NCBI GenBank assembly: GCA_038206135.1
Contig: JBBRBD010000005.1
Span: 467-64,466, forward strand
DNA: 64,000 nt
Direction of reading: 5' to 3'
Origin: Patescibacteria group bacterium
Lineage (GTDB): Bacteria; Patescibacteriota; Microgenomatia; UBA8517
The notes under the pieces were generated by a model. The model had not been told where the DNA came from. It worked only from the letters and a program-made list of their open reading frames with translations, and searched no databases. Positions 17,032-56,410 of the stretch are shown one piece after another. The position numbers were made by a program, and so were the translations under genes. How positions within the stretch are numbered: the stretch's first letter is position 1; the number at the start of each line of letters is the position of its first letter.

Positions 17032-17090
17032 TGCTCAAGAATATGGGCGGTGTAGTGCCGCCCTTTTTATATGCTATACTTGAGAAACAA

Positions 17091-17645
17091 ATGGATGAGC
17101 CGCAACTTCGCACTTCAATGCAAAAAGTTCTTGAGAATTTAACTCGTGAACTATCTGGTATACGTACAGGCCGTGCTTCTGCCTCTCTCGTATCTGATGT
17201 TATGGTAACGGTGTATGGAGGGACTCAGCATTTGCGAGTTATGGAAACTGCCTCAATTACAGTTCCTGAACCAACTCAAATTCTTATCGAACCCTGGGAC
17301 AAATCAATTATTGGCGAAATCCGACAAGGGATACTTGCCGCGAACATTGGTTTAAATCCGACCATCGATACTGATAAATTACGAATTTCTTTGCCTCCGC
17401 TTACGACTGAAGACCGAGAGAAGTATGTGAAACTTTTACATGTGAAGCTTGAAGAGTCTCGAGTTTCTATGCGTCAATCAAGAGGTGACACCATGCAGAA
17501 AATAAAAAAAGCATTTGAAGCGAAAGAGATTACTGAAGACGACAAATTTGCAGATGAGAAAAAGACGCAAGAAATCACAGATGAGTTTATTAAAAAGATT
17601 GAAGAAATGGGTGACAAAAAGACAGAAGAACTTCGCACTGTTTAA
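17091..17645 (+). CDS. frr: Ribosome recycling factor. The ORF track's 16869 start is a spurious N-terminal extension.
   Basis: MDEPQLRTSMQKVLENLTRELSGIRTGRASASL matches the Frr N-terminus. The length is 184 aa. Confidence 0.8.
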   Translation: MDEPQLRTSMQKVLENLTRELSGIRTGRASASLVSDVMVTVYGGTQHLRVMETASITVPEPTQILIEPWDKSIIGEIRQGILAANIGLNPTIDTDKLRISLPPLTTEDREKYVKLLHVKLEESRVSMRQSRGDTMQKIKKAFEAKEITEDDKFADEKKTQEITDEFIKKIEEMGDKKTEELRTV

Positions 17646-28987: not shown

Positions 28988-29921
28988 ATCGTTACAACCT
29001 AAATATTTGACTGGTTTTGAAAACCTTATAAAGTCCTCCTTTCCTTTGCAAAGTAACGACAGTATGTTACTCATAAATTGGAAGTTTTTAACTTCACGGG
29101 ATAATCGGGATGCGGTAAGTTTTGTCGCCATAGACGCTAATGATAACGTAGTTAGCCAATATTCAAATATTCCCATTATTGTTTCTTATAAAAATCAAAA
29201 TTTTTCTGCAATGGTATGTGCAGATATGGCAACACTTTTGGAACACAGGGGAAATAAACTGATTTCAACGCTTTCTAAGAAAGTATATGAAAAGGTGGTG
29301 AATGATGGTGTGATTGTAAGTATTGGTTATTCAAACCAACTAGGAGTGAAAGTTGACAAGAATGCTTTTGGTTACGGATACCAAGTGGTTGGAGAGTTTA
29401 CACGTTTTGTCAAAATAATATTAATATACTCGAAAACTAAACTGATATTGAAACTGGTCAAAGATTTTAAAAAAAATTTTGTACCTAAAAACACAACATA
29501 TTTTCGAGTATTTAAAAATTATGAATATTTAAAATGGCGATATGTTGATAAGCCAGACAATAGATATCGTATATTTGAAGTTAACGAGAATAATATATTG
29601 ATAGGATATGTCGTTTTGTTAGAGTTCAGAACTCGTCTTTATGTATACGATATTATTCTTTATGACAATGATGTAAAGATTTACAAGGAAGTACTTAAAT
29701 CTATACAAAATTACTCAAAAGAGAGACATATTTATATCGTGGTGTATCGAGTACTTGATAATAGTTTTTGGAATGAAGTATTTAAAAATGAAAACTACAT
29801 AAAAAAGACTCCTAAAAAGATTCAGTACTATCTAACTGTAAAAGTTCATAACAATCATGAAGTCTCACCTGAAATACTAAAAAAAGACTTTTGGATTTCA
29901 ATAAATGGTGATATTTACTAA
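28971..29921 (+). CDS. Hypothetical AT-rich protein, possibly a GNAT/FemAB-like acyltransferase.
   Basis: Its ATG overlaps the CoA-transferase stop by 17 nt. The composition is K/N/Y/I-rich. Assignment to the FemAB-like fold is weak. Confidence 0.3.
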   Translation: MEYRFESLQPKYLTGFENLIKSSFPLQSNDSMLLINWKFLTSRDNRDAVSFVAIDANDNVVSQYSNIPIIVSYKNQNFSAMVCADMATLLEHRGNKLISTLSKKVYEKVVNDGVIVSIGYSNQLGVKVDKNAFGYGYQVVGEFTRFVKIILIYSKTKLILKLVKDFKKNFVPKNTTYFRVFKNYEYLKWRYVDKPDNRYRIFEVNENNILIGYVVLLEFRTRLYVYDIILYDNDVKIYKEVLKSIQNYSKERHIYIVVYRVLDNSFWNEVFKNENYIKKTPKKIQYYLTVKVHNNHEVSPEILKKDFWISINGDIY

Positions 29922-29957
29922 CACTACTTTTGTAGTATGATTGCCCTAAGCTCAGAT

Positions 29958-31400
29958 ATGAAACTATATAACTCACTTTCAAAAAATATCGAAGAATTTG
30001 TTCCATTAAATGCTCCTCACGTGGGGATGTACACCTGTGGACCCACTGTTTATTCGTATGCAACAATCGGCAATTTCCGTACCTATTTGACGAGTGATTT
30101 AGTTGTACGGGCTTTGAAATTCAGTGGGTACAATGTCGAATTTATTATGAATTTAACTGATGTGGGACATTTAACAGGTGACAATGAAGGGGATGCAGAC
30201 ACAGGGGAAGATCGATTAGAAAAATCTGCCAAAAAAGAAGGAAAAACAGCTTGGGATATTGCGGACTTTTACACCAAAGCATTTATAAAAGATTTTGATG
30301 AATTAAATCTTACTAAACCTCAGAGTTTCATGAAGGCTACGGAACATATTCCAGAGCAAATCGAACTTATACAAAGACTACAAAAAAATGGTTTTGTATA
30401 TCAAATAAGTGATGGATTATATTTTGATACCGTGTCATACGAAAAGATAACTGGAAGAAAATATGGAGAACTTTCAAGTTTAGATAAAATTCTTGAAGGT
30501 GCTCGAGTTGAGCCGAATTTAGAAAAGAAAAACCCTCGAGATTTTGCATTGTGGAAGTTTTCGCCAGAAAATCAAAAGCGCCAAATGGAGTGGGATAGTC
30601 CGTGGGGAATTGGGTTCCCTGGTTGGCACATTGAATGTTCTGCAATGAGTATGGAGAAGCTTGGCGAAACTTTTGATATACACACGGGAGGGGAAGATTT
30701 GCGTGCAACTCATCATCCAAACGAAATTGCTCAAAGCGAAGGAGCCACGGGAAAACTTTTTGTGAAATATTGGATGCACAGCGCCTTTTTGAAAGTAGAT
30801 GGAAAAAGAATGGGGAAGAGTTTGGGGAATGCATATACTCTTACTGAAGTGAAAGAAAAAGGATATGACGCGATGGCACTGCGATATTTTTATATGACCG
30901 GCCACTATCGAAGCCCTTTGAATTTCACCTGGGAAGCGCTGAGCGCTGCACAGAATGCGTTAAATAAATTGCGTGCAACTTTTGCTTCCACCGAAAAGTT
31001 AGATGAAGAAATGCGCACAGAACTTTCTGAAGAGAAACTCCAAAAAATTACGGATTTTCGGCAAAAATTTACACAGAGTTTGAATGATGACTTAAATACT
31101 TCAGAGATGCTGTCTGTTTTGTGGGAAGTTGCAAAAAGTAATATTCCAAGTCCTGACAAACGAGATTTACTGTTACTATTTGATGAAGTATTGGGACTTC
31201 AACTAGATGTAAAACCTGAAGAGGGTCCAGTTCCTTCAGACGTGTTAGATTTGTTTGAAAAACGCAAAATTGCTCGAGAGAACAAGGCTTTTTTTGAAAG
31301 CGATACGCTTCGTGATCAAATTAGTGCAAAGGGTTATACTGTAAAAGATTCACCAGATGGAACCTCAAAACTCTCAAAAAGCTTTACTTTCAAAGATTAA
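29958..31400 (+). CDS. cysS: Cysteinyl-tRNA synthetase.
   Basis: HVGMYTCGPTVYSYATIGNFRTYL (HIGH region) and KMGKSLGN (KMSKS) are present. Confidence 0.85.
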   Translation: MKLYNSLSKNIEEFVPLNAPHVGMYTCGPTVYSYATIGNFRTYLTSDLVVRALKFSGYNVEFIMNLTDVGHLTGDNEGDADTGEDRLEKSAKKEGKTAWDIADFYTKAFIKDFDELNLTKPQSFMKATEHIPEQIELIQRLQKNGFVYQISDGLYFDTVSYEKITGRKYGELSSLDKILEGARVEPNLEKKNPRDFALWKFSPENQKRQMEWDSPWGIGFPGWHIECSAMSMEKLGETFDIHTGGEDLRATHHPNEIAQSEGATGKLFVKYWMHSAFLKVDGKRMGKSLGNAYTLTEVKEKGYDAMALRYFYMTGHYRSPLNFTWEALSAAQNALNKLRATFASTEKLDEEMRTELSEEKLQKITDFRQKFTQSLNDDLNTSEMLSVLWEVAKSNIPSPDKRDLLLLFDEVLGLQLDVKPEEGPVPSDVLDLFEKRKIARENKAFFESDTLRDQISAKGYTVKDSPDGTSKLSKSFTFKD

Positions 31401-37618: not shown

Positions 37619-38182
37619 ATGGACTTACGGACAATTCCTGATGAAGATTTGGTCGTGTATGTGCGCGAGGTAGATCTGAGCGTCTATCGTGAAGTTGTCG
37701 ATAGATATGATATACAACTTTTGCGTTATGCACGCAATTTGCTTGGAAATGAACTTACGGCTCATACTGTTGTTCAGGAATCTTTTATTTCGGTATATAA
37801 AAATATCAATGCATTTAATCCACGACTAAAATTATCAAATTTTTTGTACCGGGCGGTTCATCAAGAGGCATTGGGCTTTATCTCAAAACATTTGCATCAT
37901 GCGAAGAAAGGCGAATTTGAAGACTTTGCCGAAGAGTTTATAAGTGAGGAAGATATTGAGACGGAATTTTCAGATAAAGAACTTATAAAACATATCCAAA
38001 TGAGTTTGCATGCTTTACCGATAAAATATCGTGAACCTTTGATACTCCATTTCTTTGAACAAAAAAGCTACGATGAAATAGTTGGAATTTTGCAAATATC
38101 AGCCTCAGCTGTCGCTGCACGAATTTCTGTTGGAAAATCCCTTGTAAAAAAACATGTTGAAACGAAAAAAAATAACCACTGA
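37619..38182 (+). CDS. ECF-type RNA polymerase sigma-70 family factor.
   Basis: Region 2 (HTVVQESFISVYKN) and a region-4 HTH (SYDEIVGILQISASAVAARISVGKSLVKK) are present. Confidence 0.75.
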   Translation: MDLRTIPDEDLVVYVREVDLSVYREVVDRYDIQLLRYARNLLGNELTAHTVVQESFISVYKNINAFNPRLKLSNFLYRAVHQEALGFISKHLHHAKKGEFEDFAEEFISEEDIETEFSDKELIKHIQMSLHALPIKYREPLILHFFEQKSYDEIVGILQISASAVAARISVGKSLVKKHVETKKNNH

Positions 38183-38831
38183 ACCAGAACAACACGTGCT
38201 TGGTAGGCGTGTAATGGAGCGGATTCGTGCTGAGAAAATTGAGCCAGTTCCGGTCTCGACATTTCTAGTTCACAAACTGCTTTTAGGTATTGCAATAGCT
38301 TTGTCAGGATTTATTGCAGTTTTTTTTACAAGTATTGTGTTTTATCGAATAGTTGCAATTCAATTTTTTGGGAGAACGTTTATTTTTGAACACTTTCCAT
38401 GGTTTGCATCAGGCCTTGCCCTCTGTGGAGTGCTTCTCACTTTCGCATTGCTTGAATATTACAAAGTATTGTATAAGTTTTCGCTTATTAGTTTATTTAT
38501 TTTTGTCTGTGTTGTCTCAGCCGCAGGAGGATTTTTATTGAATAAAACACCCCTGCATACACGACTTGAAAACAGTATTGTGGGTGGAATATATGCGGTA
38601 GAGGAGACACCACTGCATGTATATGCGGGTCGTGCAATTGAAGTGCGGACACAAAACTCTTTTGTGCTAGAGACTTTAAGAGGTGACCACTTACATGTAT
38701 ACATTCCAGCCGGCGTAAGACTTCCAGCAGATGGAATCAATGAAGGGCAATCAATCTTTGTTGCAGGCTATCAAAAAGGAGGACAGTTTGTCGTTAAAGG
38801 TGTTCTAACAATTGGAAAACCGAAGGCTTAA
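38154..38831 (+). CDS. Membrane protein, putative anti-sigma factor.
   Basis: It overlaps the sigma gene's 3' end. A cytoplasmic N-terminus is followed by TM helices. Confidence 0.4.
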   Translation: MLKRKKITTEPEQHVLGRRVMERIRAEKIEPVPVSTFLVHKLLLGIAIALSGFIAVFFTSIVFYRIVAIQFFGRTFIFEHFPWFASGLALCGVLLTFALLEYYKVLYKFSLISLFIFVCVVSAAGGFLLNKTPLHTRLENSIVGGIYAVEETPLHVYAGRAIEVRTQNSFVLETLRGDHLHVYIPAGVRLPADGINEGQSIFVAGYQKGGQFVVKGVLTIGKPKA

Positions 38832-40636: not shown

Positions 40637-41311
40637 ATGAGAATACTTGTTGTTGAAGATGAACATAAAATTGCCAACTCTATAAAAAAAGGACTTGAAC
40701 AAGAGTCTTTTGCAGTGGACATCGCCTATGATGGCGTGGAAGGCTATGACCTTGCGTCTACTGAACCGTACGATGTCATTTTATTAGACCTCATGCTTCC
40801 TGGTATGAATGGAATGGAAATTTGCAAAAAACTTCGTGAAAATAAAGTGCACACTCCTATTTTAATGCTTACCGCCAGAGGAGAAATTGAAGATAGAGTA
40901 AAGGGCTTAAATACGGGAGCTGATGATTATCTAATCAAACCGTTTGCCTTTGAAGAGCTTGTGGCGCGTATTAAGGCAATTGCGAGAAGACCGAAAGAGG
41001 CTATTGAAACGCTGATAAAAATGGACACCCTATCGCTCGACACGACCAGTTATGCAGTAAAGAGAGGTGAAACAGCAATAGATCTAACTAGGAAGGAGTT
41101 CTCGCTTCTTGCATTTTTAATGCGTCACAATGGTCAAACATTAAGTAAAGAGCAAATTATGGAATCTGTGTGGAGTTATGAAGCAGATATATTACCAAAC
41201 ACCGTTGAAGTATATATTGGCTATTTGCGAAACAAAATTGATCGAGCATTTCCTCATGAGAAACAGCTTGTGCACACTGTTCGTGGATTTGGGTATAAAC
41301 TTAGTCCATAA
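40637..41311 (+). CDS. OmpR-family response regulator.
   Basis: It has a receiver domain (ILVVEDE...LLDLMLPGMNG) and a winged-helix output domain. Confidence 0.9.
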   Translation: MRILVVEDEHKIANSIKKGLEQESFAVDIAYDGVEGYDLASTEPYDVILLDLMLPGMNGMEICKKLRENKVHTPILMLTARGEIEDRVKGLNTGADDYLIKPFAFEELVARIKAIARRPKEAIETLIKMDTLSLDTTSYAVKRGETAIDLTRKEFSLLAFLMRHNGQTLSKEQIMESVWSYEADILPNTVEVYIGYLRNKIDRAFPHEKQLVHTVRGFGYKLSP

Positions 41312-41314
41312 CTG

Positions 41315-42301
41315 ATGCAAATATTCCACTTCACACGAGTTAAGCTTACCTCCTGGTATGTTGCCATCATTATGATTGTTAGTATTTCGTTTAGTGGATT
41401 TGTATACCGTGGCGTTATGGCCGAAGTCAGCCGTGGCCTTCACTTGAGAGCTGTACGCACACCTTTTTATTCTGAGCAATATTTAGCAGATGATGATGCA
41501 CTCTATGAAGAAATTCGAAAACAGGTAATAACACAACTTATGCTTGTTAATTTAGTTATTTTTGCAGGAAGTGCAGCTGCTGGGTATTTTCTTGCGGGAA
41601 GAACACTAGCTCCAATTGAGATTATGCTTGAAGAACAAAAACGTTTTGTTGGTGATGCTTCACATGAGTTGCGGACCCCTTTAACTTCACTAAGAACTGA
41701 AATTGAAGTTGCACTTCGTACTAAAGATCACAATGCTGAAACAAAAGAGCTTTTACAAAGTAACCTTGAAGAAGTAAATAAAATGCAATCACTTACGGCT
41801 TATTTATTAAGTCTTTCTCGGTATGAGCGGGGAGACCTGAAACTCGTAAAAGAAACAATGTCACTTGATGGTGCGGTTAAAAAAGCAGTTAAAGCGCTTT
41901 TGCCACAGGCAGAAAAACGAAAAGTAAAAATTAAAGTAAATACAATCCCAGTTGAAATAGTTGGAAACCAGGCAAGTATTGCCGAGCTTATAACAATACT
42001 TTTAGATAATGCAATTAAGTACAGCAACGAAAACAGTGCTGTTTCAATACGAGTTAAGAGAGTAGGAACGCGGTCAGTTCTAGAAATTGTCGACAGGGGA
42101 ATGGGTATTAAAGGCGCAGATCTCCCGCACATTTTTGATCGTTTTTATCGAGCCGACTTATCTCGAACTAAGAAAAACATTGATGGGTACGGACTGGGGC
42201 TTTCAATTGCGAAAAGTATAGTTGAGCTACACAATGCAAAAATAGACGTTAAAAGTATCCTTGAAAAAGGTACAACCTTCACCGTTACTTTTGTTCGCTA
42301 A
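41315..42301 (+). CDS. Sensor histidine kinase.
   Basis: It has two TM helices, the HisKA H-box HELRTPLTSL, and N, G1 and G2 boxes. Confidence 0.85.
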   Translation: MQIFHFTRVKLTSWYVAIIMIVSISFSGFVYRGVMAEVSRGLHLRAVRTPFYSEQYLADDDALYEEIRKQVITQLMLVNLVIFAGSAAAGYFLAGRTLAPIEIMLEEQKRFVGDASHELRTPLTSLRTEIEVALRTKDHNAETKELLQSNLEEVNKMQSLTAYLLSLSRYERGDLKLVKETMSLDGAVKKAVKALLPQAEKRKVKIKVNTIPVEIVGNQASIAELITILLDNAIKYSNENSAVSIRVKRVGTRSVLEIVDRGMGIKGADLPHIFDRFYRADLSRTKKNIDGYGLGLSIAKSIVELHNAKIDVKSILEKGTTFTVTFVR

Positions 42302-42364: not shown

Positions 42365-42850
42365 ATGAAAAAGCGAGTAATTATTCCGACCATTGCATTA
42401 ATTGCAATTCTTGGAGCAGTCACTATTGGAACTGTTACTGTTTCTGCACAAAGCCCGATGTATGGAAACTTGATCACACAAATCGCACAGAAATTTAATT
42501 TGAAAGAGAGTGATGTGCAAGATGTTGTTAATCAAGTAAGAGCGACGCAACAGACCACGATGAAAACAAAGTGGCAAGATCGATTAACTCAAGCGGTGAC
42601 TGATGGCAAAATAACTGATGTACAAAGACAAGCAATTATTGCCAAGCATAATGAGCTGCAGACTCAGTTCACAAGCCTGCAAGGATTATCAGTGACAGAC
42701 CGTAAGGCAAAGATGGCTCAAATTCAGTCTGATCTGAAAACATGGGCAACTGCAAATGGACTTGATAGTAAATTTTTGGGACTCATTGGAATGAGACCTG
42801 GGTTTAGAGGAGGATTCAGATTAGGGTATTGGGCAGGAAATAATTCATAA
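42365..42850 (+). CDS. Hypothetical secreted protein.
   Basis: It has a signal peptide. Confidence 0.4.
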   Translation: MKKRVIIPTIALIAILGAVTIGTVTVSAQSPMYGNLITQIAQKFNLKESDVQDVVNQVRATQQTTMKTKWQDRLTQAVTDGKITDVQRQAIIAKHNELQTQFTSLQGLSVTDRKAKMAQIQSDLKTWATANGLDSKFLGLIGMRPGFRGGFRLGYWAGNNS

Positions 42851-42969: not shown

Positions 42970-44229
42970 ATGATTAATCTTAGGGGGAAAATTAAAACAT
43001 TTGTATTTGGTCACAAACGAATTTCAGGCGTTGTGGCCCTTTTCTTGATGATTGCAGTTGTGCTTATTATTCGTAACCGAAATACCGCAACTCAGACCGT
43101 GACCCAGACTGGAACTGTCGATCGAGGTACGCTTGTTGTGAGTTTAGCCTCTTCTGGAGTTGTAACTGCAGCCAACAGTGCAACGGTTGACACCGCAGCT
43201 ACTGGAGTTGTTAAAAAGATATATGTCCAAAATGGACAAATGGTTAAATCAGGTGATCCAATAATTGAACTAGATCTTGACCAAGATTCAAAGCAAAAAT
43301 ATCTAGCAGCTTCTGCTTCATATATTAGCGCAAAAAATGCGGTAGCTTCTGCGCAGAACAGTCTTAACACCTTGCAAGCTTCAATGTTTAATGCAAATGC
43401 AAAATTTATTAATGATGCATCTGCGAGAAACCTTGATTCCACGGATCCTACATATATTCAAGAAAATGCAACCTGGTTGGCGGCTGAAAATTCTTATAAG
43501 AATCAACAGAATGCAATTTTAGCGTCAGAACAATCTCAGAGTAGTAATTGGCTTTCATATAAAAGTGCTTCACCTGTTGTTTATGCTCCAATTTCAGGTG
43601 TAGTTAACGGACTTTCCTTGACTGCAGGATCAGTTATTTCGTCTCAGTCCTCAAATTCAAATGCTGCGAGTGCGCAGCGAATTGCAAGTGTCGTGACTGG
43701 CGCAAATCCGACAATTACGTTGAATTTAACTCAAATTGATGTTCCTAAGGTGAAAATTGGAGACCGTGCAACGGTGACCCTTGATGCATTCGCTGGAAAA
43801 ACATATACCGGTAAAGTCGTGAGTATCGATACCGTGGGGAGTGTAAGTAGTAATGTCAGTACATATCCAACAGTTATTCAACTTGATACACAAAACACTG
43901 AAATGTATCCAAATATGAGTGCCACGGCCAATATTATTTTGGACACAAGAGACAATGTTCTTTTAGTACAAAAAAGTGCGGTGCAAACAGCAAATGGCCA
44001 GTCAACAGTACGCATTATGAAAAATGGAGTTATGCAAAGCGTAAATGTTGAACTTGGTAAAAGTAGTGACACCCAAACTGAAATAGTTTCAGGCTTGTCC
44101 GAGGGAGATACTGTGATCACGAGTATTACAACATCAGCTACTTCGAAAACAACAACAGGTACCACTTCAATATTTAGTGGACTAAATAGATCTGGTGGAG
44201 CGGCTGTTAGAGTGCAAAGGGGAGGTTAA
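42970..44229 (+). CDS. HlyD/MacA-family periplasmic adaptor (membrane fusion) protein.
   Basis: An N-terminal TM helix is followed by a coiled-coil and a beta-barrel. It precedes a MacB-type ATPase and permease. Confidence 0.6.
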   Translation: MINLRGKIKTFVFGHKRISGVVALFLMIAVVLIIRNRNTATQTVTQTGTVDRGTLVVSLASSGVVTAANSATVDTAATGVVKKIYVQNGQMVKSGDPIIELDLDQDSKQKYLAASASYISAKNAVASAQNSLNTLQASMFNANAKFINDASARNLDSTDPTYIQENATWLAAENSYKNQQNAILASEQSQSSNWLSYKSASPVVYAPISGVVNGLSLTAGSVISSQSSNSNAASAQRIASVVTGANPTITLNLTQIDVPKVKIGDRATVTLDAFAGKTYTGKVVSIDTVGSVSSNVSTYPTVIQLDTQNTEMYPNMSATANIILDTRDNVLLVQKSAVQTANGQSTVRIMKNGVMQSVNVELGKSSDTQTEIVSGLSEGDTVITSITTSATSKTTTGTTSIFSGLNRSGGAAVRVQRGG

Positions 44230-44245
44230 TTACACGTATTTATGT

Positions 44246-44944
44246 ATGATCAATGTTACACATTTAAGCAAAATCTATCGAACAGAACTTCTTGAAACGG
44301 TCGCGCTTTCAGATGTCACCTTCAATATAAAAAAGGGCGAATTTGTAGCAATAATGGGGCCTTCAGGTTCTGGAAAATCAACATTGATGCATATTTTAGG
44401 AGCGCTTGACCGCCCAACAAGTGGATCATATGTTCTGGATGGACAGAATGTTGAAAATCTGTCTGATGACGATTTAGCAGACATTCGAAATCAAAAAATT
44501 GGGTTTATTTTTCAAGCTTTTAATTTACTTCCACGAACAACCGCACTCAAAAATGTAATGTTACCGATGAGTTATGCTGGAATTGAAAAGGAAGAACGAG
44601 AAAAACGTGCTCGAAAATATTTAGAAATGGTTGGTCTAAAAGACCGAATGAACCACACTTCTGGACAACTGTCAGGTGGGCAGCAGCAGCGAGTTGCTAT
44701 TGCCAGAGGTCTTGCCATGAACCCGGCAATACTTCTAGCAGATGAACCGACTGGAAACATCGCAAGCAATCAGGCTGAAGAAATAATGGCGATATTTCAA
44801 AAATTAAATGATGATGGGCATACGGTTGTTATGATTACTCATGAACCTGATATAGCAGAACACGCAAAGCGAATTTTGCATGTAAAAGATGGAAAACTTG
44901 TTCGAGATGAAATCATAAAAAAGCGCAGAATTGCTAAAAAATAA
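44246..44944 (+). CDS. ABC transporter ATP-binding protein of the MacB/LolD/FtsE type.
   Basis: Walker A GPSGSGKST, the signature LSGGQQQRVAIAR and Walker B ILLADEPT are present. Confidence 0.9.
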   Translation: MINVTHLSKIYRTELLETVALSDVTFNIKKGEFVAIMGPSGSGKSTLMHILGALDRPTSGSYVLDGQNVENLSDDDLADIRNQKIGFIFQAFNLLPRTTALKNVMLPMSYAGIEKEEREKRARKYLEMVGLKDRMNHTSGQLSGGQQQRVAIARGLAMNPAILLADEPTGNIASNQAEEIMAIFQKLNDDGHTVVMITHEPDIAEHAKRILHVKDGKLVRDEIIKKRRIAKK

Positions 44945-44946
44945 AT

Positions 44947-46170
44947 ATGGAATATTTTGAAATTTTCAAAGAAGCATTTGGAAACCTCACTATTAATAAA
45001 TTGAGAACTGGACTTGCAGTTCTTGGAATCGTAATCGGAATTGGTTCAGTTATTGCACTTATTTCACTTGGGCAAAGTTCACAAAAATCTGTTGAAAATC
45101 AAATTCAATCTCTTGGGGCAAATCTTCTGACCGTAATTCCGGGAGCGCAAAGTTCAGGAGGTGTTCGGGGTGCAAGTGGTGGTAACACAACACTTACCCT
45201 CGACGATGCGTTATCAATGAAAATCTCTGCCGATGTCCCAGATATTTCAGACGTGTCTCCAGAATATTCCAGTCGATCACAGGTAGTCGCAGGAGGAAGT
45301 AATTCAAACACACAAGTAACCGGTGTATACCCACAATATCAAACAATTCACAAAGTCTATCTTTCTGATGGAGTTTTTTTTACACAGAGTGATATTGATT
45401 CATTGGCTAGAGTTGCTGTAATAGGCCCGACAACCGCTACCAACTTGTTTGGAGACAGTTTAGGTGCACTGGGACAAACAATTCGTGTAAATGGGCAGTC
45501 ACTTACTGTAGTTGGGGTAACTGTATCAAAGGGAGGAACAGGTTTTAGCAATCCAGATGATGCAATTTACGTACCTCTTTCAACTGCGATGAAAGTGCTC
45601 TTTGGCTCAACTCATATTTCTACAATTTCTGTTGAAGCAAAAACTGCTGATGTTATGACCCAAGCACAAGATGAAGTTGGCTATTTTTTATTGAAGAGAC
45701 ATAACATTACAGATCCAGCTTCTGCTGACTTCACCATTTTTTCTCAAAACGATATTTTGAGTACTGCTTCAAGTGTGACGGGTACATTTACCGCACTTCT
45801 TGGTGGTGTTGCTGCTATTTCGCTCCTTGTCGGTGGAATTGGAATTATGAATATTATGCTCGTCACGGTAACAGAGCGAACCCGTGAAATTGGGCTTCGA
45901 AAGGCACTTGGTGCAAAACGAAAAATTATTATTACCCAGTTTTTAATAGAAGCAACGCTTTTGACAGCCCTCGGAGGATTCTTTGGAATGATTTTGGGTA
46001 TTGGTATTTCGTATGTATTGTCTCTCATTATGACCTTGCCATTTACCGTCTCTCCAACGTCAGTTTTGTTAGCGATTGGTGTATCTGGAGGAATTGGGAT
46101 ATTGTTTGGCTGGTACCCCGCTCGAAAAGCGGCAGCACTACAGCCAATTGAAGCGCTGAGATATGAATAA
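44947..46170 (+). CDS. FtsX-like ABC permease of the MacB type.
   Basis: TM1, a large extracytoplasmic domain and three C-terminal TM helices are present. Confidence 0.8.
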   Translation: MEYFEIFKEAFGNLTINKLRTGLAVLGIVIGIGSVIALISLGQSSQKSVENQIQSLGANLLTVIPGAQSSGGVRGASGGNTTLTLDDALSMKISADVPDISDVSPEYSSRSQVVAGGSNSNTQVTGVYPQYQTIHKVYLSDGVFFTQSDIDSLARVAVIGPTTATNLFGDSLGALGQTIRVNGQSLTVVGVTVSKGGTGFSNPDDAIYVPLSTAMKVLFGSTHISTISVEAKTADVMTQAQDEVGYFLLKRHNITDPASADFTIFSQNDILSTASSVTGTFTALLGGVAAISLLVGGIGIMNIMLVTVTERTREIGLRKALGAKRKIIITQFLIEATLLTALGGFFGMILGIGISYVLSLIMTLPFTVSPTSVLLAIGVSGGIGILFGWYPARKAAALQPIEALRYE

Positions 46171-46221: not shown

Positions 46222-46725
46222 GTGAATTTCATGAAAGAAAATAAAGAACCTAAAATGAAAATGAACCCAATGATTATGACGGCTGTCGTAGCGGTAGTCG
46301 TTGCTGGTGTGTCGTTCTTTGGTGGAATGAAGTATCAGCAAAGTAAAGCTCCTGCATTTGGAGGAGGAAGATCTGGGGCAAATGGTCAGTTTGCGGGCGG
46401 ACAAGGAAGAGCAGTTGGTGCAACAGGATCCCGCAGTGGGTTTCGCCCGGTATCAGGTCAGATTGTGAATGTTGATGCGAAATCAATGACTGTCAAATTG
46501 CAAGATGGAAGCAGTAAGATTATCTTGTTGTCAGACACGACCACATTTTCGAAATCGGATAGTGGTTCAAAGACAGACTTAACGACTGGAGCAACAGTTG
46601 CTGTGTTTGGTACTGATAATTCAGACGGAAGTTTAACTGCACAAAACATACAATTAAACCCACAAATGAAAGCACAGGGTAGTCAGCAGGCTTCGCCGTC
46701 GGGGACACCTGCCGCGATGTATTAA
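46222..46725 (+). CDS. Hypothetical Gly-rich secreted protein, DUF5666-like.
   Basis: After a signal anchor, the repeats VSGQIVNVDAKSMTVKLQDGS and GATVAVFGTDNSDGSLTAQNIQL appear. Confidence 0.35.
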   Translation: MNFMKENKEPKMKMNPMIMTAVVAVVVAGVSFFGGMKYQQSKAPAFGGGRSGANGQFAGGQGRAVGATGSRSGFRPVSGQIVNVDAKSMTVKLQDGSSKIILLSDTTTFSKSDSGSKTDLTTGATVAVFGTDNSDGSLTAQNIQLNPQMKAQGSQQASPSGTPAAMY

Positions 46726-46786: not shown

Positions 46787-46990
46787 TTGATAGAAGATAC
46801 CAAAATATCTTCCTTTGAGTCGGCCGAAGAAATTCTCCATGTGGATCACACTCATTTTCCACATTACATTCCACTTGTTATTACAGGCCTGTTAGTTTTT
46901 CTCGGTTTAATCGTGTTTATAATCAATAATAATGATAGACCTCAAGTAGCAGGGGCTTCGACTCAATCCACACAAGACACACCGAACTAA
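46787..46990 (+). CDS. Hypothetical small membrane protein.
   Basis: It is a 67-aa ORF with one TM helix. Support is weak. Confidence 0.25.
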   Translation: MIEDTKISSFESAEEILHVDHTHFPHYIPLVITGLLVFLGLIVFIINNNDRPQVAGASTQSTQDTPN

Positions 46991-47079: not shown

Positions 47080-47583
47080 TTGATATACTTAAGTATGAAT
47101 ATGATAAAAAAATACACACAAATAACCTTGTTTTTGGTGTTTTTCGCATTTCTAATATTACTTAAAAATTATATTGGCCATGATGATAATGCAGGAGCTA
47201 TTGGGCAGCCAGTATTACAGTCTCCAGTTTCACTACCAACCGTTGAACCTGTAGCAACTAAACCCGCAGGAAGTCCTTTACCCACAACCAATTCGAGTAT
47301 TTACAAAGATGGAACTTTTACTGGAAGTGTTGAAGATGCCTACTATGGAAACATTCAGGTTCAAGCAATAATTCAAAATGGTCAAATAACGGATGTCGTG
47401 TTTTTACAGTATCCAAACGATAATAGAACATCACTGAGTATTAATTCTCAAGCAACTGTGTACTTAAAGCAGGAAGCGATAGCAGTGCAAAGCGCGAAGG
47501 TGAATACTATTTCCGGAGCCTCTGACTCCAGTTTTGCTTTTCGAAAATCAATGGCAACTGCACTTTCGAAAGCACATCGTTAA
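47080..47583 (+). CDS. Membrane-anchored FMN-binding domain protein. It is a predicted ApbE flavinylation substrate.
   Basis: The FMN_bind domain YKDGTFTGS...ISGASDSSFAFRKSMATAL carries the [ST]GA[ST] motif. An N-terminal TM anchor is present. Confidence 0.75.
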   Translation: MIYLSMNMIKKYTQITLFLVFFAFLILLKNYIGHDDNAGAIGQPVLQSPVSLPTVEPVATKPAGSPLPTTNSSIYKDGTFTGSVEDAYYGNIQVQAIIQNGQITDVVFLQYPNDNRTSLSINSQATVYLKQEAIAVQSAKVNTISGASDSSFAFRKSMATALSKAHR

Positions 47584-47586
47584 AGC

Positions 47587-48327
47587 ATGACAAAAGAAGC
47601 ATTTATCATGGGTATGCCAGTGGTTATCGAGGTAGTGGACAGTCAAGTTACTGTACAAGACATTGAAGAGGTCTTTGATTACTTTAGAGAAGTGGATGAG
47701 CAGTTCAGCACCTATAAAGATACGAGCGAGATTTCAAAAATTAATCGGGGAGAATTATTACCACAGGATTATTCTAAAGAAATGAAAAAAGTATTTTCTT
47801 TGTCTGAGCAGACTAAACTCGAGACAAATGGATTCTTTGATATTGAACATCAAGGCAAAATTGACCCATCGGGAATTGTCAAAGGTTATGCAATTTGGAA
47901 AGGGGCGGAGTTATTAAGAAGTAAAGGCTTTCGAAATTTTTATGTTGAGATAGCGGGGGACATTCAAACGAATGGATTAAATAAAGAGGATAAAAAATGG
48001 AAGATTGGGATTGAAAATCCATTCAACAGATCTGAAATTATTAAAGTAGTTGAGCTCTCTGGAGAAGGAATTGCGACAAGTGGTTCATATATTCGTGGAA
48101 ATCATATTTATAACCCAAAAACTAAAATAGATACAGCTGAAATTGCAAGTGTTTCAGTTATTGGGAAAAATGTGTATGAAGCTGATCGTTTTGCGACTGC
48201 AGCTTTTGCCGCAGGACTAACTGGAATAGACTTAATTAAAGCAAATCCATCGTTAGCCGGATTTATGGTAACGCTTGAGAAGATGGCTATTAAAACCTCG
48301 AATTTTGAAAAGTACGAACAAAAATAA
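47587..48327 (+). CDS. apbE: FAD:protein FMN transferase (ApbE family).
   Basis: IDPSGIVKGYA... and EIAGDIQTNG are present. The length is 246 aa. Confidence 0.8.
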   Translation: MTKEAFIMGMPVVIEVVDSQVTVQDIEEVFDYFREVDEQFSTYKDTSEISKINRGELLPQDYSKEMKKVFSLSEQTKLETNGFFDIEHQGKIDPSGIVKGYAIWKGAELLRSKGFRNFYVEIAGDIQTNGLNKEDKKWKIGIENPFNRSEIIKVVELSGEGIATSGSYIRGNHIYNPKTKIDTAEIASVSVIGKNVYEADRFATAAFAAGLTGIDLIKANPSLAGFMVTLEKMAIKTSNFEKYEQK

Positions 48328-48333
48328 ATTCTT

Positions 48334-49842
48334 ATGTTGAAATATGTAGATAGATTCTTAAATGCGATTACTATGTATCGCTTAACACTCTATTATCTTT
48401 TGGCACTTGTTGGGTGGGCGGCAGTTGCCAGTTTCTTTAAATTGCTTCCATTTGATGCTATTGATGTACTTCTTGCGGTCTGTATTGCAATAAGTGCTGC
48501 ATATGCCGCAAATTTATTTTTTTCAAAACTTGTCGGTGCTGTCACGAATGTGGAATCAGTTTATATTACAGCGCTCATTTTGGTACTTATTGTGCCCGTT
48601 AAACTTCCGTTAAATTTTGTTTTTATTGGTGCTGCATCTGTTTTAGCAATGGCTTCAAAATATCTACTTACAGTGGAAAAGCGCCATGTTTTTAATCCAG
48701 CTGCAATTTCAATTGCATATATTTCGCTGTTATCCAGTGAACACGCGGCAACGTGGTGGGTAGGAACTCCAATTATGCTTCCAGTGGTTTTAGTTGGAGG
48801 GTTACTACTTATGAGAAAAATTCGTCGTGAAAAAATGATTGCGATTTTTTTGCTTGTATATTTGGCAACAATTTTGTCTGCTTCATTTATTAATACTCAA
48901 ACTCTTGCAGGAGTTTTGAATACATTTACTATTAGTACAACAAGGACAGCGCTTTTCTTCTTAGCATTTGTTATGTTGACTGAGCCAATGACGGCTCCGG
49001 CTACCGAAAATATGCAACTCTTATATGCGGCAATTGTTGGGGTGTTAAATGCAACTCCACAGCTCAAGCTGGGAATTGTCTTTACCCCGGAAATAGCGCT
49101 TTCTATTGGAAATATTTTTGCGCATTTTGTTAATCCTGGGTATAGATTAGTGCTTCCATTAATGGAGAAAAAACAACTTACCTCAGACACTTTTGAATTT
49201 ACATTTGATTTGGTAAAGGACTTTAAATTTATTCCGGGTCAGTATATGGAGTGGACGCTTCCTCACAACAGTTCAGATGATCGAGGTGTCAGACGGTACT
49301 TTAGTCTGGCTAGCTCTCCAACTGAGGAAACCCCAAAGCTTTTAGTGAAGTTTTATAATCCTTCAAGTTCATATAAGCGTACGATGCTTGGAATGATTCC
49401 TAAAAGTAAAATTGTTGGCTCACAACTAGCGGGTGATTTTACACTTCCTCGTGAAGTAACAAAACCACTCGTATTAGTGGCAGGTGGTGTTGGCGTCGCA
49501 CCGTTTCGGAGTATGATTAAATATATTATTGATAAGCAGTTAAAAGTAAACATTATTCACTTATTTATTAATCGCACAAAAGAAGACATTATTTATAAAG
49601 ATATATTTGACGAAGCAGAAAGCTATGGAGTACATACACTGTACTTTATAACTAGTGAGCAGGGACATTTAACTGATGAAATCGTTAAAAATCTTATTCC
49701 AGATTTTGCCAATAGAATGTTTTATGTTTCAGGACCTCAGCTTATGGTTCAAACGATAGAACAAACGTTATTTGATTCGGGCCTTTCAAGTTCTCAAGTC
49801 AAAACTGATTTTTTCCCAGGATATGTGGAGAAAGGATTATAA
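48334..49842 (+). CDS. Fusion protein. A polytopic membrane domain (about 270 aa, possibly NqrB/RnfD-like) is joined to a C-terminal FNR-like FAD/NAD(P)-binding oxidoreductase domain.
   Basis: At least 7 TM helices carry HVFNPA and MLTEPMTAP motifs. The soluble domain has RYFSLASSP (RxYS FAD site), GGVGVAPF (NAD site) and YVSGP. Confidence 0.55.
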   Translation: MLKYVDRFLNAITMYRLTLYYLLALVGWAAVASFFKLLPFDAIDVLLAVCIAISAAYAANLFFSKLVGAVTNVESVYITALILVLIVPVKLPLNFVFIGAASVLAMASKYLLTVEKRHVFNPAAISIAYISLLSSEHAATWWVGTPIMLPVVLVGGLLLMRKIRREKMIAIFLLVYLATILSASFINTQTLAGVLNTFTISTTRTALFFLAFVMLTEPMTAPATENMQLLYAAIVGVLNATPQLKLGIVFTPEIALSIGNIFAHFVNPGYRLVLPLMEKKQLTSDTFEFTFDLVKDFKFIPGQYMEWTLPHNSSDDRGVRRYFSLASSPTEETPKLLVKFYNPSSSYKRTMLGMIPKSKIVGSQLAGDFTLPREVTKPLVLVAGGVGVAPFRSMIKYIIDKQLKVNIIHLFINRTKEDIIYKDIFDEAESYGVHTLYFITSEQGHLTDEIVKNLIPDFANRMFYVSGPQLMVQTIEQTLFDSGLSSSQVKTDFFPGYVEKGL

Positions 49843-52990: not shown

Positions 52991-54013
52991 ATGCGGCGCA
53001 TTGCTTTTTTAATAATAGTTGTAATTTGTATCGGTGTGTTTGCTTTGGTTAGAAATCATCCTAAAACAACTTCAAACCAGATAGCTCAAGTGCTTAGACC
53101 AAGTCCGACAGTAGAACCTTTTTATGAAATGACTATTCCGTTTTTGAGAGCTCAAATGTACCAAAGTACCCTTGGCGATCGTATTTCTTATCAATCTCAG
53201 CCAACTTACACGTCATTTTTGACAAATTACGTCTCTAATGGTCTTAAAATAAACGGTTTGCTCACTATTCCAAAAGGTACTCCGCCATCTGGAGGTTTCC
53301 CGGCGATTGTGTTTATCCATGGATATATTGCACCCACCACATATAAAACAACAGAACGATATACAAACTATGTGGATTATTTAGCTAAGAATGGCTTTGT
53401 AGTGTTTAAAATAGATTTAAGGGGACACGGTAGCTCAGAAGGTGAGGCAACAGGATCATATTATTCTTCAGATTACGTTACTGACACCTTAAATGCATAT
53501 ACAGCTTTGGAAAATGCTGATTTTGTGAACAAAAACAAAATAGGGTTGTGGGGCCACTCTATGGCCGGAAACATTGTTATGCGAGCGTTTGCAGTTAAGC
53601 CTACAATTCCCGCTGTTGTTATCTGGGCCGGAGCTGGATATAGCTATGTAGATTTAGCAGCATACGGATTACAGGACAAGAGCTATCATCCACCAGCTAC
53701 TGCAAACACTCAATCAGAAAAGCGGCAAATGCTTCTAGATACTTACGGCTCACCAACTCTAGATAGTTCCTATTGGAGGACTGTCGCCCCGACTAATTAT
53801 TTACAAGACTTAAAAGGTGCAGTTGAGCTACATCAAGCGAAGGATGACGTAGTTGTCAGTATTCACTACAATGAGGACTTGAATGCGTTGTTAAATAAAA
53901 CTACGGTCACACATCAGTTCTTCGAATATGAGAGTGGTGGGCATAATATTAGTGGAGCAAGCTTTCCAGTTGCCATGCAACGCACTGTAGAATTTTTTAA
54001 AAAGTATTTGTAG
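52991..54013 (+). CDS. Secreted alpha/beta-hydrolase.
   Basis: A signal anchor, the GxSxG nucleophile elbow GLWGHSMAG and a C-terminal His are present. Confidence 0.6.
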   Translation: MRRIAFLIIVVICIGVFALVRNHPKTTSNQIAQVLRPSPTVEPFYEMTIPFLRAQMYQSTLGDRISYQSQPTYTSFLTNYVSNGLKINGLLTIPKGTPPSGGFPAIVFIHGYIAPTTYKTTERYTNYVDYLAKNGFVVFKIDLRGHGSSEGEATGSYYSSDYVTDTLNAYTALENADFVNKNKIGLWGHSMAGNIVMRAFAVKPTIPAVVIWAGAGYSYVDLAAYGLQDKSYHPPATANTQSEKRQMLLDTYGSPTLDSSYWRTVAPTNYLQDLKGAVELHQAKDDVVVSIHYNEDLNALLNKTTVTHQFFEYESGGHNISGASFPVAMQRTVEFFKKYL

Positions 54014-55811
54014 TTATTTTATATAGTCTCAATTGCTGTGATGAAGGAAGATTGTATTCTTTAACTAAATCAAATGAGAAAGACGATTTTATTTCTTTAA
54101 TTAGATTGAAAGAACAACCCCATGGGCAGTCTATCTCTACAGATCCTTCAATGTTTGCATTAGCTTTTGAAAGAATTCCGTTAATCATAATATCGCTTCC
54201 AGTTGAAAAAACTTGTCCCTCTCTCACAAAACATTTTGAATTTGCAGGCCCCACCTGCGTAATATACTTTACACAGTTGTCAGTTGTATCCACATAATTT
54301 CGAAGTTGCAGAAGTGCTGGTACATTCTTTATGTCCTGCACACCTGTTGTTTGTGGAGATATCAAGACATATGTACCCATTTTCAGGTAATTTTCAATCG
54401 ATTGTTGATTGGGAAAAGAATTTGAATAAAATTGACGGGTAAGAAAAGCAGGGTCAGGAGTAATTATTTTCATATCAAAAGTATTGTCTTCATATTTTCT
54501 TTTCTGCGCGTATAGCGATAAGGTACTTGGATTTATTTCTGCTGTCTCATATACAACAATCATTACTCCATCTGTAGTTGTCTGATTTAAAATATCTGCT
54601 GTGGGCCATTCTTCTGTATCATATTTTTTAGAAACTGAATCATTAAAATCAATCAAATTTACCCAAGAAATACCGGGTACGTAGAGAGAAATACGAGCTC
54701 CATCAACAATTGTTGGGCGTATTGTTAAAATCAAAAATGTAGCAATTACAAAACAAAATAGTGGATATAAAATGTATTTACTAAGATTCTGATATTTGTC
54801 TATTAAATTGTCTAAAAATATGCCAATTGTGAGCGCAATAAAGGGGATTAATGGAATTATGTATCGTGCATCTTTGTTTTGAATAAAAGTAAACGTTGTA
54901 TAACCGACAAAGAGTGTAAGCAGAATCATCCACTTATATGAGTATTTATGTCGTATAAAACTAATTATTGATACTAAAAAAACAATAGAGATGAGTGGAG
55001 TAGTCACATAATTAATGATTTTCTGTAAATAGAAGGTTAAGTTTGTAAGTGATAACAAATTTGTAGGGTCACCAAGTTCCCCAATAGAATTTATACGAGC
55101 CAAAAACAGTAAACTTTGAAGGTTTGTTAGATACCAAGGGAGAACAACTATTGCAGCTACAATTATTCCAGGTACTAACGAGAATAGTACTGACTTTATT
55201 CTTCTTTCTGTAACTACCGATATAAGTGAAAAAATTAAAGGAATGCCTATAAATACGATTCCAGTCCACTTTGTCATTATTACAAAACTAGTACATATTA
55301 AAAATAAAAATGTATATTTTTTAATTTTTAAGTTTTTGCTTTTCAATAGTAAGTAGAACGCCGTGGTAACAAGTGCCGTAAGAGGAATATCAATCATCAT
55401 TCTTCTAGATTCACTAAAGACAATCGGACAAAACGAAAATATCGCTGTAGAAATAAATGCGACTCGAGGCTTTCCCGTAAGTTCTTTTACATATGCAAAT
55501 AAGGAAACCATTCCTAGTACAAAAAAAATTGTTCCGGTAAATTGAATAATCTTTATATTTGCTCCAAAAACAAGTATCTCAACAGCTGCGAACGAATGTA
55601 CTAAAATTGGATAGTAGTTTGAAGCATTAAGTACTTCCGTAAAATGAAAATCGAGTAGCTTCTCTGCAATATTTATAGCAATTGTCGTGTGGCTCGCGGC
55701 ATCCCATGAAGGCGGTGCTGTATTTATATATAGCCAAATGATGTTAATTACTACCTGTAGGGCTATTAATAGAAATAAAAGTTTAGTCCATGAAATTTTA
55801 TTAATAGTCAT
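53997..55811 (-). CDS. GT-C-fold glycosyltransferase, ArnT/PMT-like (GT39/GT83-like).
   Basis: A polytopic N-terminal half with a first-loop PPSWDAASH is followed by a large C-terminal extracytoplasmic domain. The length is 604 aa. Confidence 0.45.
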   Translation of the reverse strand: MTINKISWTKLLFLLIALQVVINIIWLYINTAPPSWDAASHTTIAINIAEKLLDFHFTEVLNASNYYPILVHSFAAVEILVFGANIKIIQFTGTIFFVLGMVSLFAYVKELTGKPRVAFISTAIFSFCPIVFSESRRMMIDIPLTALVTTAFYLLLKSKNLKIKKYTFLFLICTSFVIMTKWTGIVFIGIPLIFSLISVVTERRIKSVLFSLVPGIIVAAIVVLPWYLTNLQSLLFLARINSIGELGDPTNLLSLTNLTFYLQKIINYVTTPLISIVFLVSIISFIRHKYSYKWMILLTLFVGYTTFTFIQNKDARYIIPLIPFIALTIGIFLDNLIDKYQNLSKYILYPLFCFVIATFLILTIRPTIVDGARISLYVPGISWVNLIDFNDSVSKKYDTEEWPTADILNQTTTDGVMIVVYETAEINPSTLSLYAQKRKYEDNTFDMKIITPDPAFLTRQFYSNSFPNQQSIENYLKMGTYVLISPQTTGVQDIKNVPALLQLRNYVDTTDNCVKYITQVGPANSKCFVREGQVFSTGSDIMINGILSKANANIEGSVEIDCPWGCSFNLIKEIKSSFSFDLVKEYNLPSSQQLRLYKITTNTF

Positions 55812-55888
55812 ACCTTTTAAGTATATCCATTTTTAGCTGTATTTCATTATCACTTGACAACATGTGTCTGAAGATACATATTTAATCC

Positions 55889-56410
55889 ATGGCTGCAAAG
55901 AAAACAAATATACTTAACAAAAAGACACTTATGCTCATCTGTGGTGTTTTGGTTATTTCAGTTATGATTTTAGGAATTAAATATTTTGCACTTCGATCTC
56001 ATTGGATGAGCTACTCTGACGAAGCACAACGAAACATCTTCATGTTTTCTGACAGAAGAGCCGAAGATCAAGCAAAGGTTGTTGCAATGGGTGGAATGTA
56101 TAAAATGAATGGACGTGAGTTATATCAAAATCAAAAAGAGATGCAAAGTTACATTACAACTCTTGGAACAGGTTTGAAGCATACGATTGTTGTAGTCGAC
56201 AGAAATAAAACAATTCTTGCTGATACCGTTTCTTCAGAAGTAGGTAAAAAATATAATAAAGACACAGGGAATGAGGTTCAGGCGACTATGTCTGATGGAG
56301 TAACTCGAACATTTTCTGAAAACGGAGTTTCACAAACTGTTATTGTCTTCAAGGCAACTTCTGGAAATACGATTGGTGCAATCGTCTTTTCGACTGATAC
56401 TGTTAAGTAA
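55889..56410 (+). CDS. Hypothetical membrane-anchored protein.
   Basis: It has an N-terminal TM helix. Confidence 0.4.
   Translation: MAAKKTNILNKKTLMLICGVLVISVMILGIKYFALRSHWMSYSDEAQRNIFMFSDRRAEDQAKVVAMGGMYKMNGRELYQNQKEMQSYITTLGTGLKHTIVVVDRNKTILADTVSSEVGKKYNKDTGNEVQATMSDGVTRTFSENGVSQTVIVFKATSGNTIGAIVFSTDTVK

Follow-up and report, generated by a model that had tools for sequence, protein, structure and literature searches.

A three-gene operon of a Patescibacteria group bacterium encodes a very probable member of the NQR/RNF-like family of candidate flavin-based transmembrane electron-transfer systems

The window analysed here is a stretch of 64,000 nucleotides from a Patescibacteria group bacterium (GenBank assembly GCA_038206135.1, contig JBBRBD010000005.1, positions 467 to 64,466 of the forward strand), and our subject is a compact operon on its plus strand that encodes an FMN_bind-domain protein, an ApbE-family FAD:protein FMN transferase and a fusion of an RnfD/NqrB-type membrane domain with a ferredoxin-NADP reductase (FNR)-type domain. 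An earlier reading of the DNA alone, referred to below as the original prediction, had placed three close genes on one strand here, and the open reading frames (ORFs) confirmed this arrangement. The longest form of the FMN_bind ORF spans 47080-47583 (167 aa, TTG start), the ApbE gene 47587-48327 (246 aa, short and leaderless) and the fusion gene 48334-49842 (502 aa), with intergenic gaps of 3 nt and 6 nt, respectively, and a TAA stop codon at the end of each. ApbE and FMN_bind are therefore the two genes directly 5' of the fusion gene, within the five-gene proximity used by Méheust et al. (2021, eLife 10:e66878). For comparison, 132 related loci (L001-L132) were assembled from 52 genome loci (one-genome-per-species contigs) and 80 metagenome loci, the latter being the 80 closest relatives (39-59% identity), so that they enlarged the sample more than they diversified it.

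The membrane domain of the fusion protein (48334..49131, plus strand; aa 1-266, about ten transmembrane (TM) helices) matched the Pfam family NQR2_RnfD_RnfE with 38.3 bits over residues 151-239 (gathering threshold, GA, 27.7), and the FNR-type FAD/NAD(P)H domain (49141..49842, plus strand; aa 270-502) matched the NqrF-like NAD-binding family NAD_binding_1 (PF00175) with 44.5 bits (GA 22) on the same polypeptide. The original prediction had named five Pfam families for the three proteins, and FMN_bind, ApbE, NQR2_RnfD_RnfE and NAD_binding_1 exceeded their thresholds; FAD_binding_6, with 20.3 bits, fell just below its GA of 21.1. NCBIfam returned sub-threshold matches to rnfD/RsxD and to many FNR-type reductases. 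The motifs that had been quoted for this protein were located at aa 118-123 (HVFNPA), 214-222 (MLTEPMTAP), 384-391 (GGVGVAPF) and 464-468 (YVSGP), the first two aligning with PFNPAM and ATDPVTSP of RnfD, respectively; only the quoted RxYS was wrong, the actual residues being R321-Y-F323-S324, a Fre-like R-x-F-S motif. Together with the C-terminal FFPGY, the R-x-[YF]-[ST], GGxGxxP and CGP-like motifs mark an FNR-like two-domain reductase (PF00970 plus PF00175).

An AlphaFold2 model of the fusion protein, built with 85 homologues, had a mean predicted local distance difference test (pLDDT) score of 90.2 and a predicted template modelling (pTM) score of 0.84. When a profile of the membrane domain alone, made from 45 diverse loci, was compared with the Protein Data Bank (PDB), it matched RnfD (E=6.7e-5) and NqrB (E=3.8e-4) and nothing else. 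The idea that this domain is a urea/ammonium-channel-like solute channel or transporter fused to a reductase, and not an electron conduit, has next to no probability in our judgement, as no unrelated transporter family appeared among these matches. Moreover, Lys and Arg averaged 11.3-11.6 in the predicted cytoplasmic loops and 1.6-2.1 in those outside, in two independent alignments (85 and 46 homologues) read on the helices of the model. Because these residues are concentrated in the loops on its side of the membrane, the FNR domain is predicted to be cytoplasmic, as had been proposed, and the A-[ST]-W-W loop described below is predicted by the same positive-inside analysis of AlphaFold2 helices to lie outside.

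In the alignment with NqrB, residues 212-276 of the latter, including the flavinylated Thr236, are reduced to only about 17 residues (131-147) in the fusion protein. These contain the sequence A-A-T-W-W (48745..48759, plus strand; aa 138-142), a predicted outside-facing, shortened remnant of the loop that carries the flavinylated Thr in NqrB/RnfD. The W-W pair of this A-[S/T]-W-W loop is invariant in 46 aligned sequences and is preceded by Ser or Thr in 37/46 and 65/80 sequences; the remaining ones have I, V, N, A, L or D there. The loop lacks the Gly of the ApbE motif, no [ST]G[AS][ST] occurs anywhere in the fusion protein, and the covalent FMN motif [ST]GA[ST] was present in just one of 80 related fusion ORFs. 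The membrane domain has one invariant His and no conserved Cys, so for any intramembrane cofactor a flavin is likelier than heme or Fe-S.

The first gene encodes a protein that matched FMN_bind (PF04205) with 26 bits (GA 22). The original prediction had started it at the TTG at 47080; alignment with about 30 orthologues, 29 of which begin with MKKY, favours instead an ATG at 47101 (MIKKY...) or 47095, so that the likely extent of the gene is 47101..47583 on the plus strand. After a MIKK/MKK-type N-terminus, the protein has a hydrophobic anchor some 20 residues long, then a linker rich in Pro, Ser, Thr and Asn, and finally a small FMN-binding domain of about 90 aa. The anchor (ITLFLVFFAFLILL, 47122..47163, plus strand) has equivalents in the orthologues, being found at the N-terminus in 37/37 genome loci and 41/43 metagenome loci. 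A predictor may call such an MKK-plus-hydrophobic N-terminus either a signal peptide or a signal anchor. Its N-terminal flank, MKK, has no acidic residues and its C-terminal flank has a net charge of about zero, a pattern that mildly favours an N-in/C-out orientation. On this charge bias, the composition of the linker and homology, the FMN-binding domain is predicted to face outward.

The ISGASDSS motif on which the original prediction had based flavinylation is present in this protein, within the heptad N-T-I-S-G-A-S (47503..47523, plus strand), whose last residue, Ser148 of the 167-aa ORF (nt 47521-47523), is the predicted FMN acceptor and lies about 20 residues before the C-terminus. No other product of the operon carries a flavinylation motif. 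Its conservation, which had been named as a point on which the assignment could fail, was evident from [ST]GA[ST] in 37/37 orthologues from genome loci and 48/49 from metagenome loci (85/86 in total). The motif recognised by ApbE is D-x-x-[S/T]-G-A-[S/T], and changing the Asp at position 1 has a minor effect; the window has Asn at this position, and Asn or Ser was found there in 16 of the 48 motif-bearing metagenome orthologues.

A profile of this FMN_bind family found its best solved relative in 8p2a_A (SaFMN3-D2, E=1.1e-21), with the SGA[ST] and SGAT sites aligned, and returned no NqrC or RnfG chain from the PDB at E<=1. By sequence, then, the domain resembles the small SaFMN3-type domain (8P2A) more than NqrC or RnfG. 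The 8P2A structure shows the second domain of the secreted, multi-flavinylated protein SaFMN3, with covalent FMN on the aligned Thr; its midpoint potential is E°' = -184 mV, and its reduced form reduces O2. Electron transfer from NAD(P)H to such a flavin would therefore be downhill.

The second gene product was assigned to the ApbE family, as had been predicted, by its match to PF02424 (E=2.8e-42). Aligned with V. cholerae ApbE (6nxi, E=1.2e-17), it keeps DPSGIVKGY, ATSGSY, NHIYNP and EADRFAT, which correspond to the shared patterns DxSxxxKG, ATSGxY, H-I-x-x-P and ADxxAT of the FAD-, Mg2+- and base-catalysis motifs, and residues K99, G124, D125, S165, H173, D200 and T204 are invariant in 30 orthologues. 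The protein is short because it has no leader and because about 50 internal residues are deleted relative to the V. cholerae enzyme. Its N-terminus (MTKEAFIMGMPVV) is the first strand of the mature domain, with no N-terminal hydrophobic segment, and the ORF cannot be extended upstream owing to an in-frame TAA at 47581-47583, one codon 5' of the ATG.

This absence of a leader extends to the relatives. No signal peptide, lipobox or TM segment was detected in any of the 85 system-linked ApbEs with complete N-termini, which comprise 41/41 from genome loci (34 close orthologues and 7 divergent proteins of 270-296 aa, three alphaproteobacterial loci included) and 44/44 from metagenome loci, on contigs with a GC content of 0.30-0.63. 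The assumption in the original prediction that ApbE acts on an extracytoplasmic motif is thus not borne out by the enzyme of the window or by any of these orthologues.

One NCBI entry is 100% identical to the fusion protein, and thousands of further matches were obtained. The best 120 of these were all about 500 aa long, and in their precomputed annotation all carried PF00175 and nearly all PF03116; among them, the few with organism names were mostly Patescibacteria or Levybacteria. Judged by its relatives, the window has the look of a Levybacteria-type CPR (candidate phyla radiation) genome. When the membrane domain alone was searched exhaustively, 1,387 cluster representatives (50% identity) matched at E<=1e-3 and 250 at E<=1e-30; the majority were fusions roughly 500 aa long. 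The 52 genome loci come mostly from CPR bacteria (Levy-, Roizman-, Staskawicz-, Falkow-, Shapiro- and Saccharibacteria, Paceibacterota), and they include three Alphaproteobacteria, one Spirochaetia metagenome-assembled genome (MAG) and one Anaerolineae MAG. FMN_bind, ApbE and fusion genes occur together on the same strand in about 36 of these 52 loci, and together in 37 of the 50 metagenome loci with at least 1.4 kb of upstream sequence.

Several variants of the operon were seen among these loci. The order ApbE, FMN_bind, fusion is found in L012 and L016, and two FMN_bind genes flank ApbE in L021 and L022 (4301-5998), giving the order FMN_bind, ApbE, FMN_bind, fusion; the operon thus has no fixed gene order. 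A fusion of FMN_bind with ApbE by stop-codon recoding, which would allow co-export, was considered and rejected: every stop is TAA, and orthologous loci differ in the order and spacing of their genes. In a divergent subgroup (L023, L028, L029, L033, L038, L039, L042, L046 and L051), mostly MAGs labelled as Saccharibacteria, the partner of the fusion gene encodes a different anchored protein of about 160 aa, of which one cluster member scores as FMN_bind and a representative has SGSS and not SGA[ST]; the linked ApbE is 270-296 aa long and still leaderless. The complete three-gene system also occurs in L024 (Mesorhizobium kowhaii), L044 (Limimaricola sp.) and L050 (an alphaproteobacterial MAG), with fusion proteins 40-43% identical to that of the window, which suggests either horizontal transfer between CPR bacteria and Proteobacteria or assembly contamination.

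An operon of this kind has already been described. As defined by Méheust et al. (2021, eLife 10:e66878), the NQR/RNF-like system is a flavinylation-associated gene cluster that encodes a protein with N-terminal PF03116 and C-terminal PF00175; it is reported mainly from Actinobacteria and the CPR, and one-way electron transfer from NAD(P)H to the flavinylated subunit is proposed for it. Huang et al. (2024, bioRxiv 2024.03.13.584918) give an AlphaFold-multimer model of the Ktedonobacter racemifer system with just two subunits in direct contact, in which the covalent flavin sits close to a pocket for a non-covalent flavin in the RnfD-like domain, and the flavinylation site of the D/B subunit is lost. 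Our operon shows the same gene content and architecture (ApbE, an N-terminally anchored FMN_bind protein and a PF03116-PF00175 fusion), with nothing essential different, and we regard its membership of the NQR/RNF-like family as very probable. Every testable element of the definition of Méheust et al. was found, so the operon is a rediscovery of a known, still hypothetical system. The novelty implied by the original prediction hence falls away, as the system was described in 2021 with the CPR named as a main host; its picture of a minimal NQR/RNF-like wire agrees well with the domain, fold, topology and synteny evidence, and with the model published in these two papers. The loop of about 17 residues independently reproduces the statement of Huang et al. 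that the family does not conserve the flavinylation site of NqrB/RnfD. Three features were not found in the searched text of either paper: the absence of a leader from 85/85 linked ApbEs, the length of this loop and the SaFMN3-type FMN domain.

Set against Rnf (RnfD/RnfG/RnfC) and Na+-NQR (NqrB/NqrC/NqrF), the operon lacks RnfA/E, NqrD/E, RnfB/C, NqrA and Fe-S clusters, its D/B-like domain carries no covalent FMN and its dehydrogenase is fused directly to the membrane domain; electron flow would presumably be one-way and not semicircular, and there is no evidence of ion pumping. It could be asked whether the operon is a fragment of a canonical ion-pumping Rnf or Na+-NQR whose other subunits are encoded elsewhere, as the membrane domain is a true RnfD/NqrB homologue and its partner has the same Pfam domain as RnfG/NqrC. 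This is highly improbable: no gene for RnfA/E, RnfB/C, NqrA/D/E or NqrF was found among the 47 larger ORFs of the window that were scanned or among the recurrent neighbours of the 52 genome loci, the fused FNR domain replaces RnfC/NqrF, the covalent-FMN site of the D/B subunit has been lost, and the FMN_bind profile, as noted, did not reach NqrC or RnfG.

Other flavin-linked or membrane-bound reductases were compared as well. The NADPH oxidase/ferric reductase family (for example SpNOX, 8QQ7), and likewise the proteins of MsrQ-like and PepSY-like type that Méheust et al. (2021) described with NAD-binding domains, have unrelated membrane folds with two b-type hemes, whereas the RnfD-like domain of the operon, judged from its sequence, presumably uses flavins. 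The flavin-based extracellular electron transfer (EET) system of Listeria (Ndh2, EetA/B, PplA, FmnB) resembles the operon in that a membrane-tethered, ApbE-flavinylated FMN_bind protein forms the external donor end, the cell is monoderm-like and NADH is the source of electrons. However, Listeria EET uses the quinone pool and an extracellular lipoprotein ApbE, FmnB, while here NAD(P)H would be linked directly to flavin by the fusion protein, with no quinone step and with a leaderless ApbE.

These comparisons lead to a proposed mechanism that we consider reasonably probable: an electron wire of two subunits that is driven by NAD(P)H, crosses the membrane by flavins only and has an ApbE dedicated to it. 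In a CPR bacterium that has no respiratory chain, it would serve to balance the redox state or to reduce an external acceptor. ApbE, with FAD and Mg2+, would attach FMN to the FMN_bind protein. The cytoplasmic FNR-type domain of the 502-aa protein would oxidise NAD(P)H on its FAD; NADH is the likelier donor because the closest sequence relatives of this domain are NADH-cytochrome b5 reductases. Electrons would then cross the membrane via at least one non-covalent flavin in the RnfD/NqrB-fold domain, which lacks the covalent-FMN loop, to reach the FMN that would be phosphoester-linked to Ser148 of the anchored FMN_bind protein at the outer face. From there they would pass to an external acceptor, for which O2, Fe(III), a quinone and free flavin are candidates. 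The likely benefit is regeneration of NAD(P)+ or reduction of an external substrate, and not ion pumping, in a fermentative CPR cell without a respiratory chain.

If the acceptor were Fe(III) and the purpose iron uptake, the same wire would be a dedicated assimilatory ferric reductase. This special case seems quite unlikely to us, as no iron transporter or siderophore gene was seen among the 47 window ORFs scanned or recurred in the 52 genome loci, and VIT1 linkage is found in fewer than 5% of published clusters.

Several observations weigh against the proposed wire. Most of the FMN-binding loop of NqrB/RnfD is missing from the fusion protein; the heptad of the window has Asn in place of Asp and offers Ser as the acceptor, a residue on which ApbE works less efficiently than on Thr; and the orientation of the FMN_bind anchor is read from only a modest charge bias. 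Moreover, no gene for an acceptor, a reductase or a transporter is conserved beside the operon in the 52 genome loci, and no experimental study of any NQR/RNF-like member was found in the literature. Finally, and bearing on the maturation of the system, all 85 linked ApbEs are leaderless, while those ApbEs known to be cytosolic act on substrates in the cytosol.

As a rule, ApbE is a lipoprotein of the periplasm; a signal peptide or lipobox is typical of the family but does not strictly define it. A leaderless cytoplasmic ApbE is known from K. pneumoniae, where it flavinylates a soluble fumarate reductase. The enzyme of the operon resembles it in having no signal peptide; in K. pneumoniae, however, the substrate is a soluble cytoplasmic enzyme, whereas here the sole motif-bearing protein of the operon is anchored and predicted to face outward. 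Keyword look-ups in Méheust et al. (2021) and Huang et al. (2024) found no discussion of a leaderless or cytosolic ApbE in NQR/RNF-like systems, and in the searched text of the former a predicted signal was demanded in just one gene per cluster. To that extent, the published extracytosolic model of these systems does not address the leaderless enzyme. Possible resolutions are flavinylation in the cytoplasm before or during translocation, a cytoplasmic FMN_bind domain, or export of ApbE by an unrecognised route. ApbE modifies even a bare 7-residue motif, best near a terminus; since the motif of the window is only some 20 residues short of the C-terminus, the protein could conceivably be modified before it folds or is exported.

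Since every linked ApbE is leaderless, the flavin transferase may act in the cytoplasm across the system. We put forward only tentatively the further step that either the outward FMN_bind protein is flavinylated before or during translocation, or FMN_bind faces the cytoplasm and the published model needs revising. As an alternative to the wire with an extracytosolic flavin end, a cytoplasmic ApbE could serve (a) an N-out FMN_bind protein facing the cytoplasm, which would shuttle electrons from the FNR domain to the cytoplasmic face of the RnfD-like domain with no extracytosolic flavin end, unlike the published model, or (b) a protein flavinylated inside and then translocated. In its favour, the leaderless state holds on contigs of widely different GC content and in three alphaproteobacterial genomes, with catalytic residues intact; the leaderless ApbEs already known act on cytosolic targets; the K+R counts on both flanks of the FMN_bind anchor are similar; and the sufficiency of a bare, near-terminal heptad suits it. 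The charge pattern of those flanks (MKK with no acidic residues against a neutral flank) nevertheless favours N-in/C-out, the Pro/Ser/Thr/Asn-rich linker is typical of exported tethers, and the homologous RnfG/NqrC as well as the closest solved relative, the secreted SaFMN3, are extracytosolic. In addition, the AlphaFold-multimer model of Huang et al. (2024) docks the FMN_bind subunit at the site where NqrB has its periplasm-facing FMN, and no literature precedent was found for Sec translocation of a flavinylated chain. On balance this alternative appears unlikely, and the wire ending in an outward-facing flavin is the reading that we retain.

The surroundings of the operon bear on its purpose. 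Downstream, msrB (SelR, E=5.9e-40) lies on the opposite strand in convergent orientation, with 4 nt between its stop and that of the fusion gene. The convergent adjacency noted in the original prediction is thus real, and it had been taken there to hint at redox repair, that is, at the operon supplying electrons for methionine-sulfoxide repair. This link did not hold: msrB was adjacent in none of the 132 related loci, including 0/52 genome loci, and its only occurrence in the 80 metagenome loci was 3.6 kb away. Lying on the opposite strand, msrB is not co-transcribed with the operon, and since its product has no signal peptide it should be cytoplasmic. As the synteny is not kept in related loci, we take the linkage to be coincidental and the repair hypothesis to be effectively refuted.

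The prediction that the window holds no other respiratory components was likewise supported (0 among the 47 larger ORFs scanned). The other 30 large ORFs scanned encode housekeeping and transport functions (PBP2, TopA, ThyA, Tmk, SHMT, FolD, RpsB, RRF, DnaX, RecR, tRNA synthetases and ATP-binding cassette (ABC) exporters). Promoter and terminator scans gave sites no commoner than in shuffled sequence, and Rfam and tRNA scans of the window gave no matches. In the 52 genome loci, no cytochrome, iron transporter or Rnf/Nqr subunit recurred near the operon. The only recurrent neighbours were an OmpR-type response regulator with a histidine kinase, an extracytoplasmic function (ECF)-type sigma factor, and MacA/MacB with DUF5666, each in about 7-9 of the 52 loci and no more than a few kb from the fusion gene, and all of these families also lie 5' of the operon in the window. 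This neighbourhood suggests a loosely conserved envelope-stress or efflux setting. In the window it comprises the ECF-type sigma factor (37619-38182), a membrane ORF that follows and overlaps it (38154-38831) and possibly encodes an anti-sigma factor, the OmpR-type response regulator and histidine kinase (40637-42301), a MacA/MacB-type ABC efflux system (42970-46170) and DUF5666 (46222-46725).

Between the DUF5666 gene and the operon there is a small ORF (46787-46990, plus strand; 67 aa, TTG start) with a strong Shine-Dalgarno sequence (GGGAGGTG), whose product has a His-rich N-terminus (HVDHTHFPH) and one TM helix, and for which the 52 related genome loci yielded no homologue. Two further ORFs with hydrophobic N-termini, predicted to be exported or anchored, have relatives at such loci: 42365-42850 (161 aa, without Pfam match), with homologues in L046 (65 nt downstream of the fusion gene), L002 and L038, and 55889-56410 (173 aa), with homologues in L002 and L043 (39 nt downstream of the fusion gene). 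Their products could be accessory or partner proteins, or the association could merely reflect shared synteny.

Elsewhere in the window, three successive ORFs (12554-13216, 13318-13980 and 14097-14798; 220-233 aa) have no Pfam match and no detectable mutual similarity, and are followed on the opposite strand by a gene for a Fic/DOC-domain protein (14791-15783). The ribosome-recycling-factor ORF (16869-17645, 258 aa) has its RRF domain at residues 92-255 only; its TTG start was probably called too far upstream, or else it has an unusual N-terminal extension. Finally, the G+C content, about 0.39 elsewhere in the window, dips to 0.332 at 28001-30000, where a CoA-transferase III gene ends and a GNAT-type acetyltransferase is encoded, and to 0.319 at 54001-56000, where the minus strand encodes a PMT-family glycosyltransferase (53997-55811).

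The genomes of CPR bacteria are tiny and encode no respiratory chain. A self-contained, three-gene export of NAD(P)H electrons would be one of the few candidate routes by which they could achieve redox balance or reach external substrates. The idea has been in the literature since 2021, and the present locus adds a member and not a concept; the leaderless ApbE is the one feature able to change the current picture, namely where and how anchored proteins receive their covalent flavin. If flavinylation does take place before or during translocation, ApbE substrates would be matured by a route that has not been described for them. With 1,387 cluster representatives the family is of fair size, and its small, well-behaved member described here would make a reasonable target for biochemistry.

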